Sequence record: PQ511150.1
Length of the DNA stretch: 64,000 nt
Source of the DNA: Escherichia phage NHEP29
Direction: 5' to 3' (one strand)
Under the pieces are notes generated by a model that was not told where the DNA came from, ran no database searches, and was given only the letters and a program-made list of their open reading frames with translations. The position numbers and the translations under genes were made by a program. Within the stretch, counting starts at the first letter, position 1. Each line of letters starts with the position of its first letter. Shown here in pieces: positions 12,596 through 39,174 of this stretch.

Positions 12596-12623
12596 AATAT
12601 TTTCCTCTCGTTAAGATAGAAAG

Positions 12624-12653
12624 ATTATACTCCAACCATCCTTGGTTGTAAAC
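12624..12653 (-). promoter_or_regulatory. early-type promoter (GTTTAC -35, TATAAT -10) with palindrome CAACCA..TGGTTG in spacer
   Basis: Minus-strand GTTTAC-N18-TATAAT upstream of 11645..12595; near-identical copy at 13629-13660. Confidence 0.5.
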
Positions 12654-12657
12654 TGAT

Positions 12658-13605
12658 TTATGATTTTAATGCATTCATTGCGTTAAAAAGTTTAGAGTAC
12701 TGCAACTGGAGCTTGGTAACTACTTGTTGAGCATCACGAAGCTTAGCTTGTGCTTTGTCAAGTTCAACGGATAGTTGGTCTACAGTGGCCTTTATTTGAT
12801 TATAATGGTAATCTTCGGCAGGAAGAAGACCATTAGAGATTTCCAGTTTTGCTTCCGGTAAAGTATATACAGACGGTGTGCCGTTAAACATAACAGGTTG
12901 TGCTGAAGCTGCATTAATCTTACCGATAATCGGTGTAATAATTGACGCTTCGAACGTTGCATTTTCCTTTTTAAGATTTTGATAGTATTCAGAGTCTTTG
13001 TGCCACCATGGCGCAGGAACCTTTTTACCAATAGATACACGGGCCTGGATAGCGATATGGCCCTTATTCTTGATAGGGTTGATAATATTAAGCTCACGAG
13101 AATAAATTGCTTTAATCTGGTGAATATTATCACCTAACACTTCCAACGCTTGGTGGAATACACGAGCAACGTTATCATTCTTAGGTTTATACGTAAGAGT
13201 GAACTCATTCTCACTGATAACCATGATTTCTAACTTATCGTAAGTATATTTCAAATGTTTCATATTAATTGCTTGAGGACGAATACGAGAAGCAATGGCC
13301 ATCAGATTGTTAAGGTTATTCCGGAACTGCTTAGCGAAATATTGTCCTTCACCGCCAATACAAAAATTACGAAGTTTCTGTTTGGCTAATAAACGGCTGA
13401 ACTCACCATTTTTAATGAACTCTTTAACGGGTGTGTTAGTAACGCATTCAAATTGAGTAAACTTACGAGAAGTAATCCCATAATATGAACAGACTTCCTC
13501 AATCTCTTCAGGAGTCTTTACAGGCATACGGATAGGATTAGGACCTGGGGTATATGCGTTCGAGGTAAATTCTTTGATAAGTTCTCTACGTGTAATAAAA
13601 GCCAT
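12658..13605 (-). CDS. hypothetical protein with C-terminal coiled coil (series member B)
   Basis: 315-aa ORF; same promoter/leader cassette as neighbour. Confidence 0.6.
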   Translation of the reverse strand: MAFITRRELIKEFTSNAYTPGPNPIRMPVKTPEEIEEVCSYYGITSRKFTQFECVTNTPVKEFIKNGEFSRLLAKQKLRNFCIGGEGQYFAKQFRNNLNNLMAIASRIRPQAINMKHLKYTYDKLEIMVISENEFTLTYKPKNDNVARVFHQALEVLGDNIHQIKAIYSRELNIINPIKNKGHIAIQARVSIGKKVPAPWWHKDSEYYQNLKKENATFEASIITPIIGKINAASAQPVMFNGTPSVYTLPEAKLEISNGLLPAEDYHYNQIKATVDQLSVELDKAQAKLRDAQQVVTKLQLQYSKLFNAMNALKS

Positions 13606-13628
13606 TTTATATTCCTCATGTTGAAAAA

Positions 13629-13660
13629 TTTATTATACTCCAACCATCCTTGGTTGTACA
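13629..13660 (-). promoter_or_regulatory. early-type promoter cassette, variant copy
   Basis: TTATACTCCAACCATCCTTGGTTGTA repeated from 12626-12651. Confidence 0.45.
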
Positions 13661-14650
13661 TCATTCCTTAAGAAGTTTTACTACTTGAATAAGATTAGCT
13701 CGTTCTGTTTTATTTTTACCGTTTAAGCCTGCTAATCGTGAGATTTCATCGTCAGTCTGTTGAATAGTTACATTAAGTTCATTAATCAAAGCTTCAAAGT
13801 ATTTGATTTGCTCAGCATGTTTTGATTCAAATTTCTGAACCGGAATAACGTTCAGTTCATCAATAAGGTCTTTAAGAGCATCTTCTTGGTTGATGTCATA
13901 TTCAACTTCTTTTATTTCTTCAACGAGCTCGTCTTTATATCTAACGTCTTTTAGTCCTGGAGCTGGTCCTGAAATCTCTTCTTTAAGAGTACAAACATAT
14001 CCAATACGGTATTGGATACCGTCTCGCTTGATATCAACTTCGTCAATAAATCCACAATGTTTAAGACCAGAGCCGATTAGGTCAAAATATCCTTGACGTC
14101 GTCCTTCAAACGTTACACGAACTACTAAGACAGTTTTACCTGCAACCTTTTGAAGCTCACATTTATAAAAGTCTGTTGAACCTGAATAACGTGGATGAGT
14201 TTTAAAGTTCATCTGACGATCTAGGCCCATTTGTAAGCGTGCTGATACGGCCATAAAACGTGTTTGGTTCTCGTTAAGATGAGCAACAATCCATTTCAAA
14301 GGCATTTTACACTGTTCACGACCGAACAAATCAGTACGTCCTAGATTACGCAGGATGTTGTTAGAGTTAATCATCGACAGAACGTTAAGTTTATTCAGCG
14401 CGCTGAAGATTCCATCGGCCATTGATTTTCCGTAACCTTTACACGCTTTAATAAGCGCTCGCGGTAGATTAGTATAGATTTCAGACGGCATATGAAAATC
14501 AAATTTACTAGTCAGTAATTGATGAACTTGGATAGCAATTTGTTCATAATTAAGTGCTCTGCGATCATTATGGTCTTTAAACCACACTTTAATCTGTGAA
14601 GCACATAAACCGTTAATTTCATGTTTTACCGCATCAGATGTAATGCTCAT
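13661..14650 (-). CDS. hypothetical protein with C-terminal coiled coil (series member C)
   Basis: 329-aa ORF. Confidence 0.6.
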   Translation of the reverse strand: MSITSDAVKHEINGLCASQIKVWFKDHNDRRALNYEQIAIQVHQLLTSKFDFHMPSEIYTNLPRALIKACKGYGKSMADGIFSALNKLNVLSMINSNNILRNLGRTDLFGREQCKMPLKWIVAHLNENQTRFMAVSARLQMGLDRQMNFKTHPRYSGSTDFYKCELQKVAGKTVLVVRVTFEGRRQGYFDLIGSGLKHCGFIDEVDIKRDGIQYRIGYVCTLKEEISGPAPGLKDVRYKDELVEEIKEVEYDINQEDALKDLIDELNVIPVQKFESKHAEQIKYFEALINELNVTIQQTDDEISRLAGLNGKNKTERANLIQVVKLLKE

Positions 14651-14712
14651 ATCTATTTCCTCAGATTGAATTGGAACTCAAAACCATTATAACCCGTCCT
14701 TGGGTAAAGCGT

Positions 14713-15240
14713 TTATGCGTGAACCGTCTTTAAACGTTCTTCAAATTTCCGAAGAGTACTAATACGTTCTGCTTTCTGTTTTGTGTAGTTTGCAATACGT
14801 TCTGAAGTGAGAGCGTATCGTTCGTTTACTGATTCTTTCGTGAAGTCAGGGATTTCACGAGAAGCTTTAATTTCATCAAACTTATCGAGTACTGCCTGGT
14901 CTTCAGCGATTAAATTTTCGTACATCTCGATATCTTTCTTGATAAACTCGATATCTTCCTGGGTTACTTTGGATAAACGAGATGCTTTATCCTTTTTGTA
15001 CTGCTCGTTGGTTTCACGAGACCAGAATAATGTACGTTTTTTGTTAGTGTTTTTGTAGACTTCCACAATTCCAACTGAATCGATGATAACAATCCAATTC
15101 CAGCGAGATTTGAAAATCTGACCTCCGTCCACGGTAATCTCGTTACCATAAGCAACGTCATTAAAGAACTTGCTTTGTGCTTCAGATTTAAATTTACCGT
15201 CGTTATAATTTACCAGGTTGAAAATATCTTTAGCGTTCAT
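14713..15240 (-). CDS. hypothetical protein with C-terminal coiled coil (series member D)
   Basis: 175-aa ORF; promoter cassette at 15258-15296. Confidence 0.55.
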   Translation of the reverse strand: MNAKDIFNLVNYNDGKFKSEAQSKFFNDVAYGNEITVDGGQIFKSRWNWIVIIDSVGIVEVYKNTNKKRTLFWSRETNEQYKKDKASRLSKVTQEDIEFIKKDIEMYENLIAEDQAVLDKFDEIKASREIPDFTKESVNERYALTSERIANYTKQKAERISTLRKFEERLKTVHA

Positions 15241-15257
15241 GTTTTACCTCCAGTAGT

Positions 15258-15296
15258 TGATAGGTCTATAATAACATAACCATAGACCTTGTAAAC
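15258..15296 (-). promoter_or_regulatory. early-type promoter cassette with AGGTCTAT..ATAGACCT inverted repeat
   Basis: Minus-strand GTTTAC then TATTATA-like -10 inside a palindrome. Confidence 0.5.
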
Positions 15297-38194: not shown

Positions 38195-38553
38195 GAGTGT
38201 TCCACCACTTCAAAAGTATGTGCATTGACAATCTGATACCAGTCAAAATTTTCTTCAGTATTTTTGTAGATTTCACGAAGAGCTTCAACAGTTTTTCCTG
38301 TAGCAACAAGATCGTCAATACCGCCAAGAGGATAACAGTCGTAACCAGCAAACAGAAGAAAATTAATAGTTTCTGTAGGTTCTGGATGCAGAACACCGTT
38401 ATCGTCTACCACTTCAAAGAAAATGTAAGAAGGAGTACAAGTTTTAATCCAGGCCCAGGCTTGAGCTGCTGAATCAAATGGTCTGCGTATCAAACGACAA
38501 TCAGGGTCTTTAGAAGGATTTGCTTCAAAATCCGCATATACGTGATATTTCAT
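38191..38553 (-). CDS. hypothetical protein
   Basis: ORF trimmed to MKYHVYADF start. Confidence 0.5.
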   Translation of the reverse strand: MKYHVYADFEANPSKDPDCRLIRRPFDSAAQAWAWIKTCTPSYIFFEVVDDNGVLHPEPTETINFLLFAGYDCYPLGGIDDLVATGKTVEALREIYKNTEENFDWYQIVNAHTFEVVEHS

Positions 38554-38554
38554 T

Positions 38555-38761
38555 TTACTCACCTTTTGCAATTTTATCCATAACGATAGCGATTAAGCCG
38601 ATTAGAAATGCTACTACCAATGAGATAGAATTTTCTGTTGTTGTCAGTAGTCCACAAATGAATCCTACAAACATCGAAAAACTAAAAGCCATTGAAGCAA
38701 TTACTACAGCAACATTACGAATCAGTTCAGCGCGTTTCATTTTATTTCTCCATTTACTCAT
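38555..38761 (-). CDS. hypothetical small membrane protein
   Basis: 68 aa with one long hydrophobic helix. Confidence 0.45.
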   Translation of the reverse strand: MSKWRNKMKRAELIRNVAVVIASMAFSFSMFVGFICGLLTTTENSISLVVAFLIGLIAIVMDKIAKGE

Positions 38762-38765
38762 TTGT

Positions 38766-38806
38766 TTTGATAGGACTACTATATCATAGTCCTATCAGCA
38801 TGTAAA
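38766..38806 (-). promoter_or_regulatory. early-type promoter cassette with perfect palindrome GATAGGACTA..TAGTCCTATC
   Basis: Minus-strand GTTTAC-spacer-TATAGT; 10-bp arms flank the -10 region. Confidence 0.5.
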
Positions 38807-38810
38807 CTAC

Positions 38811-39098
38811 TTACAGAAGAGTTTTTGCAATAATTTTAAGCTGAGCTACAGAAATATGCTTAGCTTTAAACAGTGCAGTCTCTTCAGCAGGAGAGATAAC
38901 AATAGTAGCGCCATCTTTCTTAGCAGACCATCCATCCCCTAAGTAAACAGTACCTTTTACTTCTTCGCCGTCAACCAGACTAATCATTGGTTTACCCTCA
39001 CGTCCTTTATTTGCTTTAATAACTTCGGAAGTAAGGGTCGCTTCGGTCAGAGTAGAAACGTTAGCATCAGGTGATATAAATTCTTTATAGGTTTTCAT
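38811..39098 (-). CDS. internal protein (capsid-targeting-signal protein; ipI-like position next to 57B)
   Basis: 95 aa starting MKTYKEFISP; sits next to 57B, where ipI lies in T4. Confidence 0.65.
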   Translation of the reverse strand: MKTYKEFISPDANVSTLTEATLTSEVIKANKGREGKPMISLVDGEEVKGTVYLGDGWSAKKDGATIVISPAEETALFKAKHISVAQLKIIAKTLL

Positions 39099-39122
39099 TT
39101 TATTTCCTTGAGGTCGTTTATT

Positions 39123-39162
39123 TGATAGGATGATAGTAACACACCATCATCCTTATGTAAAC
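39123..39162 (-). promoter_or_regulatory. early-type promoter cassette with palindrome AGGATGATGG..CCATCATCCT
   Basis: Minus-strand GTTTAC-N17-TACTAT then AAGGA SD and ATG of the ipI-like gene. Confidence 0.5.
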
Positions 39163-39174
39163 TGTTTTGTGAAA

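Follow-up and report, generated by a model that had tools for sequence, protein, structure and literature searches.

Recurrent early-promoter cassettes with embedded stem-loops in the accessory zone of a Mosigvirus coliphage

Why should a short module holding a promoter, a palindrome and a leader be repeated in front of so many accessory genes of a T-even phage, and what does the palindrome do? The question is raised by Escherichia phage NHEP29, of which a 64,000-nt stretch (PQ511150.1; the window) was analysed. The phage is a Mosigvirus, an RB69/JS09-like coliphage, and the window holds its nrdC-tk-regB-denV-ipI accessory zone. We consider it probable that the window has about 22 cassettes of the PeSL type (promoter-early-stem-loop), in each of which a T4-type sigma-70 early promoter is joined to a short leader and the beginning of a single accessory early gene. 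They match the published PeSL concept and in kind are thus already known. What they add is modest: judged from their sequences, many of the stem-loops look like promoter-gated translational insulators of the sort found in T4 e/49/soc rather than terminators.

A sequence-only reading had listed 21 positions for such a cassette on the minus strand. All 21 lie inside a promoter-like cassette, although one, near 14676, is in a degenerate copy (CTTTAC, 12-nt spacer) and a good copy at 5973-6046 had been missed, which brings the count to 22. The elements follow in the order A-rich upstream region, GTTTAC, 17-18 nt spacer, TGn-TAnnnT, AgaCCTATCAA start region, GGAG-type SD and ATG. Every copy occupies the intergenic gap directly 5′ of the SD-ATG, and the orthologous genes in T4 have the same cassettes. 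GTTTAC-N15-20-TAnnnT occurs 22 times in the window vs. 6.2 ± 2.4 in shuffles, and 21 of the 22 matches are on the minus strand; this excess and strand bias, with a consensus like that of T4 and RB69 early promoters, argue for promoter identity. An nhmmer profile seeded with 15 copies recovered non-seed copies at 17050 (E = 6e-7), 30484 (1e-6) and 35144 (1e-4). Its matches with E < 1e-3 are on the minus strand without exception, and none falls in the 40-64 kb part of the window. When the copies are aligned, conservation extends beyond the hexamers: TGn, the -10 and 'Ag.CCTATCaA', which spans the predicted start, are kept in at least 70% of them. The 23-nt leader earlier quoted as conserved proved to be a composite that only three copies match within 3 mismatches. 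Four more GTTTAC...TATAAT sites lie inside coding sequence (32936, 11673, 10268 and 5330), where leader and hairpin are both missing.

The palindrome had been described as an inverted repeat over the -10. The example offered was right to within 1 nt (5′ arm 38797-38786, 3′ arm 38779-38768), but this is one of three registers: the spacer pairs with the -10/+1 region (class A) or with the SD (class B), or forms a small hairpin within itself (class C). Against shuffles with the hexamers fixed, about 15 of the 22 cassettes carry a non-random hairpin (z ≤ -2); six have no significant one (35706, 26718, 17050, 16772, 14709 and 12653), and 19892 is borderline. The four sites in coding sequence are non-significant by the same test (three with z > 0; 5330, z = -1.8). 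The cassettes are as follows.

39096-39176, minus strand: ipI-type internal virion protein; class A AGGATGATGGTG/TACTATCATCCT (39153-39142 / 39138-39127), z = -3.4
38738-38821, minus strand: trna.4-like 61-aa gene; class A TGATAGGACTAT/GTAGTCCTATCA, z = -4.5; GGAG in leader; breakpoint here, with a 17-nt duplicated leader
35645-35720, minus strand: 167-aa gene (35706); no significant embedded hairpin, z = 0.1; preceded by terminator variant 35745-35765
35080-35158, minus strand: 75-aa gene, ATGTAC -35; class C, small hairpin within the spacer, z = -3.1; 33-nt duplicated leader flanking a 177-nt insertion in relative L002
34782-34869, minus strand: e.6-like 197-aa gene, variant cassette (ATTTAC); class A TGAGAGCA/TGCTCTCA, z = -3.4; 60/68 identical to the copy at 4560-4627
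31988-32062, minus strand: 79-aa gene; class A GATAGGGCTAT/GTAGTCCTATC including a G.U pair, z = -4.1
30683-30767, minus strand: 66-aa gene; class A AGGTCTGTAGT/ACTATAGACCT, z = -3.5; deletion junction in L002/L005
30426-30498, minus strand: 101-aa gene (GTGTAC); class A, z = -2.1; deletion junctions in L002, L005 and L006
27401-27474, minus strand: denV; class B TTCCTCCAAG/CTTGGAGGAA (27454-27445 / 27416-27407) sequestering the SD, z = -5.6
26657-26732, minus strand: 100-aa internal virion protein gene (26718); no significant hairpin, z = -0.2; breakpoints 26682 and 26722
26297-26368, minus strand: orphan cassette, class B, z = -4.4; then ATGACTCGATGA, the first 8 nt of denV followed by a stop; a recombination scar
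24109-24182, minus strand: regB; perfect 14-bp class B TTCTCCTCTAGTTG/CAACTAGAGGAGAA (24162-24149 / 24131-24118), z = -5.2
19834-19906, minus strand: 59-aa gene (19892); weaker class B, z = -2.0; directly preceded by intrinsic terminator 19906-19930
19383-19457, minus strand: 36-aa gene (19443); class A GGTAGGACTA/TAATCCTACC, z = -4.1; leader GGAGAACAAAA fits the RegB consensus
16991-17064, minus strand: 72-aa gene (17050, GTGTAC); no significant hairpin; GC-rich hairpin upstream, 17070-17096; entire module replaced in L001, L003 and L006
16703-16786, minus strand: nrdC.10-like 326-aa gene (16772); no hairpin, z = 1.5; leader GGAGAATAAAA fits the RegB consensus; breakpoint at 16753-16763
15238-15310, minus strand: 175-aa gene; class A AGGTCTATGGT/ATTATAGACCT, z = -2.3; class B in orthologues of other phages
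14648-14723, minus strand: 329-aa gene, the degenerate cassette (14709); no significant hairpin
13603-13675, minus strand: 315-aa gene (13661, ATGTAC); small spacer hairpin CAACCA/TGGTTG, z = -2.4; core near-identical to the copy at 12653
12593-12667, minus strand: 316-aa gene (12653); small spacer hairpin, z = -1.6, not significant
5973-6046, minus strand: 60-aa gene, the copy missed earlier; class B-like hairpin, z = -3.4; nhmmer E = 2e-8
4544-4627, minus strand: 101-aa gene, variant cassette (GTATAC); class A GAGAGCA/TGCTCTC, z = -2.3

In a set of 128 distinct cassettes, 69% have z < -2 (mean z -3.4). At denV, swapping the arms weakens folding from -14.3 to -6.7 kcal/mol, and the native value is reached in 0/2000 permutations. 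In the anchored spacer-SD helix both sides have changed at 7 of 12 pairs. Its covariation score, 0.432, compares with 0.178 in shuffles (0/500) and with 0.05-0.17 in slid registers. The sense strand folds better than the antisense by -1.6 kcal/mol, vs. +0.1 in composition-matched shuffles (p = 2e-8), and G.U pairs on the sense strand number 190 vs. 104 for A.C; these covariation and strand-asymmetry tests use related, non-independent sequences. The regB orthologues keep the same design with four different arm sequences. At one orthologous promoter the downstream sequence is kept and the spacer pairs with either the -10/+1 segment or the SD. Covariation of the arms between copies and between orthologues suggests selection on pairing, and the strand asymmetry points to a hairpin that acts as RNA, from the sense strand.

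A scheme can be proposed. Transcription would start about 7 nt past the -10, at the A of CCTATC, as the consensus suggests. The leader would be unstructured and 20-35 nt long, its GGAG-type SD often doubling as a RegB/S1-type cleavage site. As RNA, the inverted repeat would fold into a hairpin, with the promoter spacer, which is free of sequence constraint, encoding its 5′ arm. As this arm lies upstream of the predicted start, the hairpin should be confined to RNA that was begun farther upstream and read through, and be missing from any transcript that the cassette itself initiates. Among the class B copies, denV and regB included, the 3′ arm coincides exactly with the SD; in other phages it does so with the AUG. 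Read-through RNA would then be translationally silent and hidden from RegB, and expression would be tied to the gene's own early promoter. This would be the logic known from T4 e, 49, soc and I-TevI, where a late promoter lies in the hairpin. Genes e and 49 of the window serve as positive controls, keeping the classical late-promoter/SD hairpin at similar stability. Such insulation can cover only about a quarter of the window copies, since six lack a significant hairpin and the class A and C hairpins are away from the SD. In class A, where the 3′ arm would end at about +1, the role is less clear; most likely the hairpin is a 3′-end barrier or stabilizer for the upstream message, or an attenuator.

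The original PeSL proposal was that the stem-loops are terminators or attenuators for the upstream gene, making the cassette a terminator-promoter composite that insulates transcription units. In its favor, a lacZ assay showed strong termination by one GC-rich RB49 stem-loop (PMC2839356), a GC hairpin and T-run overlap the -35 at jumbo-phage denV loci, and true terminators stand directly upstream of cassettes 19892, 35706 and 17050. The terminator repeats of the window are these.

19906-19930, minus strand: intrinsic terminator repeat GCCCCTTCCGAAAGGTTGGGGCTTT, just upstream of cassette 19892; terminator and early promoter composite
20529-20553, minus strand: second exact copy, then late promoter TATAAATA
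36459-36483, minus strand: third exact copy, then TATAAATA; an L005 breakpoint adjoins at 36450
35745-35765, minus strand: variant copy GCCCCTTCCTATGGTTGGGGC, upstream of cassette 35706

None of the embedded hairpins, however, has a T-tract or is among the 25 terminator-like sites; an A-rich leader (ATCAAAACAAA) follows them instead. Where a real terminator lies upstream the embedded hairpin tends to be missing (at few independent loci), and termination gives no reason for class B arms to match the SD. The earlier likening to PeSL cassettes thus holds for sequence features but not for the proposed role of the stem-loop, and for the window we regard termination as unlikely.

The region had also been called a recombination-prone accessory zone, and comparison with five relatives of 95-97% identity bears this out. 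They cover only 66-94% of the zone, and of 41 indel breakpoints, 17 are in intergenic zones that bear a cassette, vs. about 2.7 expected (a script placed 16 there, binomial p = 2.5e-9; 17 after two were re-binned by hand). Breakpoints occur at 11/22 cassette junctions vs. 6/56 others (Fisher p = 4e-4), and the junctions show a hybrid cassette and duplicated leaders. The cassettes mark sites of gene gain and loss among close relatives, and the breakpoints show that whole modules are exchanged. Spaced every 0.3-3 kb in one orientation and sharing 30-60 nt of similarity, the cassettes probably serve as patches for homologous exchange, through which promoter-plus-gene modules are inserted, deleted or swapped between related phages. 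Some clean events lie at a terminator repeat or at non-cassette junctions, and recombination between the terminator copies at 20529 and 19906 accounts for the presence or absence of gene 19936-20493. Part of the excess at cassettes could stem from selection, if indels of whole modules are the viable ones, and not from more frequent crossing-over there. The expectation that novel genes are most likely here fared poorly: each of the 20 cassette-driven proteins tested belongs to an existing PHROG family (16 of function unknown), with no ORFan among them.

The clustering of breakpoints in cassettes invites the view that the inverted repeats act as DNA, be it as cruciforms, single-strand hairpins, protein-binding palindromes that target recombination (e.g., by endonuclease VII) or, a palindrome over the -10 being classic operator geometry, as the site of a dimeric repressor. 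A recombination protein that binds stem-loops was indeed speculated upon (Arbiol 2010; PMC2839356). But the arms differ completely between copies (GATAGGACTA, AGGTCT, AGGATGAT, GAGAGCA, TTCTCCTC and others), so no single sequence-specific protein fits. The crossovers are at the -35, leader or ATG, not specifically in stems; stems of 7-14 bp with loops of 8-17 nt extrude poorly, and better folding and far greater tolerance of G.U than A.C on the sense strand are unexpected for a symmetric duplex element. We find action as DNA quite improbable.

Equally doubtful is that class B hairpins couple rather than insulate, a ribosome that terminates at the upstream stop melting the 5′ arm and exposing the SD in read-through RNA. 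Upstream stop codons do adjoin or overlap the -35 (e.g., 24175-24173, 35144, 34855, 13661), and the 5′ arm begins about 10 nt past the stop, roughly as far as a terminating ribosome reaches. Yet the ribosome would open only part of a 10-14 bp helix that begins about 11 nt past the stop; in other phages the alternative register has the 5′ arm over the -10/+1, at least 30 nt from the stop, and the validated T4 precedents of this geometry (e, 49, soc, I-TevI) repress, not couple (PMC3014915). That the repeats are functionless, inherited by duplication of a few ancestral cassettes (near-identical sub-families exist: 4613/34855, 12653/13661 and the GATAGGACTA group) or left as by-products of recombination, is scarcely credible, as the same position is filled by at least six unrelated arm sequences, arms that covary, by compensatory double changes and by shifts of register from one orthologue to another, already sit badly with this view, and promoter-like sites in coding sequence lack hairpins.

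Translational insulation for class B, within cassettes of PeSL type, can now be set beside the known systems. The definition of a PeSL calls for AT-rich sequence upstream, an early promoter, a stem-loop that lies either between the -35 and -10 or over the -10, an SD, an ATG and a hyperplastic region (Arbiol 2010, PMC2839356; Comeau 2014, PMC4122927). The window cassettes show every sequence feature of this definition. They are clustered in hyperplastic regions before small accessory genes, and the indels that separate close relatives have their ends in them. PeSL-like elements were noted at internal-protein (IP) loci (Repoila et al., 1994, per Arbiol 2010, PMC2839356); the T-even versions, as stated for those loci, have GTTTAC promoters and AT-richer stems, and the window includes ipI and ipII/ipIII-type loci. 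Mosigvirus (the RB69/JS09 group), however, is outside the clades analysed in PMC2839356 and PMC4122927. The window stems are without GGGG...CCCC arms and T-tract, which makes the terminator role unfit for them. A large subset pairs the spacer with the SD, a feature undiscussed in the PeSL papers; the word 'translation' is nowhere in the PMC2839356 text.

T4 early promoters (Pe) are 'uber' UP/-35/TGn/-10 sigma-70 promoters (PMC2988021), and 57 early promoters were predicted in RB69 (PMC1524935). The cassettes share with Pe the GTTTAC at -36 to -31, A-rich -40 to -44, TGn, TAnnnT, C-rich -3 to -1 and location 5′ of early and novel ORFs. Those descriptions hold the spacer to be unconserved and are silent on inverted repeats, whereas here it carries a covarying arm. 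The strong RegB/S1 site, GG*AGRAYARAA (Durand 2006; PMC3014915), is matched exactly by leaders at 16772 (GGAGAATAAAA) and at 19443 and 17050 (GGAGAACAAAA), and regB itself is cassette-driven, with a GGAG SD. This likeness accounts only for the 3′ part of the leader, not for promoter or hairpin. In class B, read-through RNA would have the GGAG base-paired and so, if the published rule applies, shielded from cleavage.

The closest functional parallel is the translational control of T4 e, 49, soc and I-TevI by a promoter inside a hairpin (reviewed in PMC3014915). There too the SD and/or AUG are closed off by a hairpin in transcripts from upstream, while the promoter, within or before the 5′ arm, gives a proximal transcript that is free of the arm and can be translated. 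The hairpins are of similar stability (about -13 to -22 kcal/mol), and the window's e and 49 keep the design. In the literature searched, no experimental demonstration of such a gate was found for any early gene. The difference is that the embedded promoter of the window cassettes is early sigma-70, not late gp55; if the scheme is true, the gate limits translation to the first minutes of infection, not to late times.

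By megablast the region belongs to Mosigvirus, the RB69/JS09-type Tevenvirinae; the top matches, at 95-97% identity, leave part of the query uncovered (coverage 66-94%). From gene order in annotated relatives and in T4, 1-42 kb of the window is the minus-strand early region, with nrdD, gene 49, nrdC, nrdC.x, tk, vs, regB, the IP loci, denV and e, and then nudE, the e.x genes, tRNAs, ipI, 57 and gene 1. An Rfam search at the gathering score found no match in the cassettes described here. Its sole matches were two tRNAs at 37153-37304 (minus strand), annotated in relatives as tRNA-Arg plus tRNA-Met or tRNA-Ile (CAU-type); the corresponding T4 locus holds eight.

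A scan for GTTTAC-N15-20-TAnnnT gives 22 occurrences (shuffles: 6.2 +/- 2.4), 21 of them on the minus strand. Listing GTTTAC on that strand gave 15 clear promoter-leader-ATG units; the other positions proposed in the sequence-only reading have a -35 with one mismatch (GTGTAC, ATGTAC, ATTTAC, GTATAC or CTTTAC). An nhmmer profile seeded with the 15 copies (E<1e-3) picked up copies outside the seed; the plus strand gave no match, nor did 40-64 kb. The early-promoter cassettes claimed in that reading are thus real: all 21 of its positions fall within intergenic promoter-leader-ATG units, and an extra copy at 5973-6046 brings the final table to 22 intergenic cassettes. The spacer, counted from GTTTAC, is 17-18 nt in 21/22; cassette 14709 (cassettes are named by a single coordinate) is degenerate, with a spacer of 12 nt. 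The reading had staked its case on the copies aligning past the -35 and -10 hexamers, and they do: the consensus anchored on the -10 is t.aaaAAA..gtTTac...TaTG.TAtaAT Ag.CCTATCaAa, so the similarity reaches well past the hexamers. The conserved leader it described survives in part, since the 23-nt form is a composite that only three copies approach within three mismatches, and Ag.CCTATCaAa is shared. Four promoter-like sites inside coding sequence lack the leader. In several cassettes the leader fits the strong RegB/S1 consensus GG*AGRAYARAA, and several T4 orthologous promoters fit the cassette profile at the level of sequence consensus. The leader motif AAATGAGTAAAT(T)GGAGAAATAAAATG (38740-38761, 30685-30702 and 16705-16728) includes an upstream ATG; two copies have it in the frame of the main start, the third in another frame. 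This ATG is probably a piece of the conserved leader rather than a start codon.

This is the anatomy of a promoter-early stem-loop (PeSL) cassette: a sigma-70-type early promoter with a 17 +/- 1 nt spacer and an AT-rich upstream region, ending in an intergenic Shine-Dalgarno (SD) sequence and downstream start codon. Of the 20 cassette-driven proteins that were tested, every one falls in a PHROG family: 16 have no known function, two are internal virion proteins, and the last two are RegB and DenV (the latter by sequence).

The cassettes also mark where related genomes part. Breakpoints were taken over 4-40 kb from collinear HSPs of >=200 bp with five relatives (95-97% identical), because short cassette-to-cassette HSPs would bias breakpoints towards cassettes. 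After merging there are 41, of which 17 fall within intergenic zones that bear a cassette, where about 2.7 would be expected (16 by script, binomial p=2.5e-9, before two or three re-binnings by hand at 6440, 38735 and 38751), in line with the prediction that gene presence and absence would break at cassettes. A breakpoint is found at 11/22 cassette junctions and at 6/56 others (Fisher p=4e-4). The concentration of cassettes in a hyperplastic region, with indels and replacements between close relatives, is as in published PeSLs. Events away from cassettes are at 6440, 8526 (a homing-endonuclease or intron insertion), 9604, 10658-10693, 21897-22308 and 29301-29385. Homing-endonuclease insertions present in relatives (L003 3009-4055, L005 38044-38694) are absent at window 8526 and 42162-42193: one is an I-TevII-like element that splits nrdD (JK45), the other a putative HEG between gp2 and gp4 (ChristianSchoenbein).

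Some of the rearrangements can be followed individually. In published PeSLs, neighboring cassettes recombine into mini-circles, as detected by inverse PCR (PMC2839356, PMC4122927). Two related loci (L002 and L005) have a single hybrid cassette in place of the window's cassette, gene 30485-30685 and second cassette; this arrangement, without the gene that separates cassettes 30484 and 30753, is what mini-circle-type excision would be expected to leave. L002 also has extra modules bounded by duplicated leaders of 33 nt and 17 nt, and a third relative (L006) lacks 8.2 kb, the stretch from cassette 30484 to cassette 38807. The orphan cassette 26354 (26288-26368) is followed by ATGACTCGATGA and keeps the first 8 nt of denV before diverging; its homology partner is the denV cassette of an IMG/VR locus (L024), again through denV's first 8 nt. 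To judge from these matches, it is a recombination scar. The next long ORF downstream of it, ipIII-like, is about 170-200 nt away. The members of two cassette pairs resemble each other much more closely than is usual in the family: 4560-4627 and 34802-34869, 30 kb apart, are identical at 60/68 positions, and 12615-12660 and 13623-13668 share an identical 29-nt spacer-plus--10 core. Such likeness suggests that distant cassettes were recently converted or duplicated.

When each cassette was folded from the -35 through the ATG, against shuffles with both hexamers held fixed, z was <=-2 in 15/22; the hairpin loops enclose the -10. None of the four promoter-like sites in coding sequence is significant (z>0 in three, -1.8 at 5330). 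Among 128 distinct cassettes across relatives, z<-2 in 69%. A stable stem-loop in or adjoining the promoter is a PeSL feature, known from five published positions, usually the -35/-10 interval or over the -10 (PMC2839356, PMC4122927). Three classes occur here.

Embedded hairpins of the window, minus strand, by cassette
39162 (ipI-type), 38807 (trna.4-like), 34855, 32048, 30753 (66-aa gene), 30484 (101-aa gene), 19443, 15296 (175-aa gene), 4613: class A, spacer pairs with -10/+1, 3' arm ends at -1 to +7
27460 (denV), 24168 (regB), 26354 (orphan), 19892, 6032: class B, spacer directly 3' of the -35 pairs with the SD; 5' arms at -29 to -16, 3' arms stop 1-8 nt short of the ATG
35144, 13661, 12653: class C, small hairpin within the spacer

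The class B helix of regB is 14 bp and perfect. The same hairpin position is filled by at least six unrelated arm sequences. A shared repressor operator was rejected, the arms having no common sequence.

T4 orthologous genes have the identical cassette architecture with different arms. Among 33 distinct denV upstream regions (IMG/VR) the SD is sequestered in nearly all, and often the AUG too, by a 5' arm that lies in the spacer in some and over the -10 in others. The tests of selection on pairing draw on related sequences, so their p-values are indicative only: swapping arms between denV haplotypes abolishes pairing (native -14.3 vs swapped -6.7 kcal/mol), and 0/2000 permutations match the native energy. 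RNAalifold found no structure in a plain MAFFT alignment of denV cassettes, because loop indels put the arms out of register. With the alignment anchored on CTCC/GGAG (23 distinct spacer/SD arm pairs), 7/12 pairs have changes on both sides, and the covariation score is 0.432 as compared with 0.178 shuffled (0/500) and 0.05-0.17 in slid registers. The regB orthologues have one design in four arm haplotypes, and G.U intermediates are present in class A cassettes of the trna.4 type. In orthologues of cassette 15296 the downstream sequence is constant and the spacer partner is either TATAGACCT (class A) or CTACTGGAGG (class B), which makes the unconstrained spacer the evolving arm.

An inverted repeat might instead act as DNA. 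A DNA structure would be symmetric, and across the 128 distinct cassettes the fold of the sense strand is the more stable by 1.6 kcal/mol (sense against antisense; composition-matched shuffles +0.1, an indicative p=2e-8), with 190 vs 104 G.U pairs. Both favor a structure in RNA over one in DNA.

Which RNA would fold follows from geometry. With +1 set 7 nt past the -10, after the T4/RB69 logos (PMC1524935), the 5' arm is upstream of the inferred +1 in every case; the hairpin would therefore form only in read-through RNA, never in the cassette's own transcript. The cassette hairpins thus look like read-through-specific RNA structures.

The published reading of the PeSL stem-loop as terminator or attenuator finds no support in silico. 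No T-run lies 3' of the embedded stems, none of which is GC-rich with a T-run as in Rho-independent terminators, and they are absent from the terminator-like sites of the window. They are not canonical terminators. That form belongs to a separate repeat.

Terminator repeat and late-promoter leader hairpins
19906, 20529 and 36459 (exact copies), 35745 (variant): terminator repeat GCCCCTTCCGAAAGGTTGGGGCTTT
9528-9585: gene 49 leader hairpin, TATAAATA then ACCCTTATCT/AAGGTAAGGGT
28229-28256: gene e leader hairpin, TAATAAATA overlapping AATACCTCCTAT/GTGGGAGGTATT

A copy of the repeat stands on each side of gene 19936-20493. Separate true terminators lie upstream of cassettes 35706, 17050 and 19892, where the hairpin is absent or weak; averaged across all loci, z is -1.6 where a terminator lies upstream and -3.6 where none does, an association that is only suggestive as few of the loci are independent. 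At two places on the minus strand, 20518-20553 and 36447-36483, the intrinsic terminator GCCCCTTCCGAAAGGTTGGGGCTTTTT runs directly into the late promoter TATAAATA. These near-identical copies of about 38 nt precede unrelated genes (185 aa, 208 aa) and constitute a second repeated regulatory cassette, analogous to PeSL/PmSL but made of "terminator plus late promoter".

Genes e and 49 of the window retain T4's textbook late-promoter/SD-sequestering hairpin, a mechanism listed for e, soc, 49 and I-TevI only (PMC3014915). Its geometry, a paired SD/AUG with the 5' arm upstream of the proximal start, is shared by class B, where denV and regB orthologues keep it with covariation, and is absent from classes A and C. 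Class B hairpins would accordingly resemble it in acting as promoter-gated translational insulators, a modest refinement of PeSL.

The wider proposal, that across T4-like phages the T-even-type PeSL stem-loop is a promoter-gated RNA switch and neither a terminator nor a recombination signal, is one we put forward tentatively and with more doubt than conviction. The switch would be made from free promoter spacer and would fold only in read-through RNA. In the SD-pairing register, early genes such as regB and denV would be translatable from their own early promoter alone, so that RegB and DenV synthesis would be limited to the 2-3 min of early-promoter firing: an early-phase mirror image of lysozyme's late-only gate. 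Switching of register between classes A and B would be the evolutionary tuning knob. The early promoter of regB is shut off after 2-3 min, the gene requires tight regulation, and GGAG is shielded from RegB by secondary structure (PMC3014915).

For a coliphage genus of therapeutic relevance, the cassettes amount to a ready map that shows autonomous early-gene modules and where crossovers are likely, of use in annotation, prediction of swappable genes and engineering. If the hairpins gate translation by promoter of origin, this would explain how dense same-direction early genes escape cumulative expression from upstream promoters and why RegB and DenV synthesis ends abruptly, and the "terminator" reading of T-even-type PeSL stem-loops would need revision.

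A literature search on SD-sequestering early-promoter hairpins and T4 start-site maps found nothing specific. Valerie et al., in NAR in 1986, reportedly noted potential stem-loops ahead of T4 ipIII, ipII and denV; for T4, the observation as such may thus be old already. The 2006 prediction of RB69 early promoters does not refer to inverted repeats (PMC1524935). The PeSL papers treat RB49/phi1, T4/PST and KVP40/nt-1, with the Mosigvirus RB69/JS09 clade outside their set (PMC2839356, PMC4122927); they take the stem-loop as a terminator, and the 2010 text never mentions translation (PMC2839356). A true terminator-over-promoter PeSL does occur about 70 nt upstream of denV in jumbo relatives (IMG/VR L029, L031, L035 and L037; contigs of 345-378 kb), as an RB49-style composite with a TTGAC -35 embedded in a GC hairpin plus T-run (AAAAGGGTTGACTTCGGTCAGCCCTTTTTGCTATAAT); the T-even-type cassettes differ from it. 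The likeness to PeSLs first seen in the sequence holds in anatomy and in breakpoint association, and the evidence supports placing the window's cassettes in this known kind, to which the read-through-specific hairpin, as a candidate insulator, adds a modest refinement.
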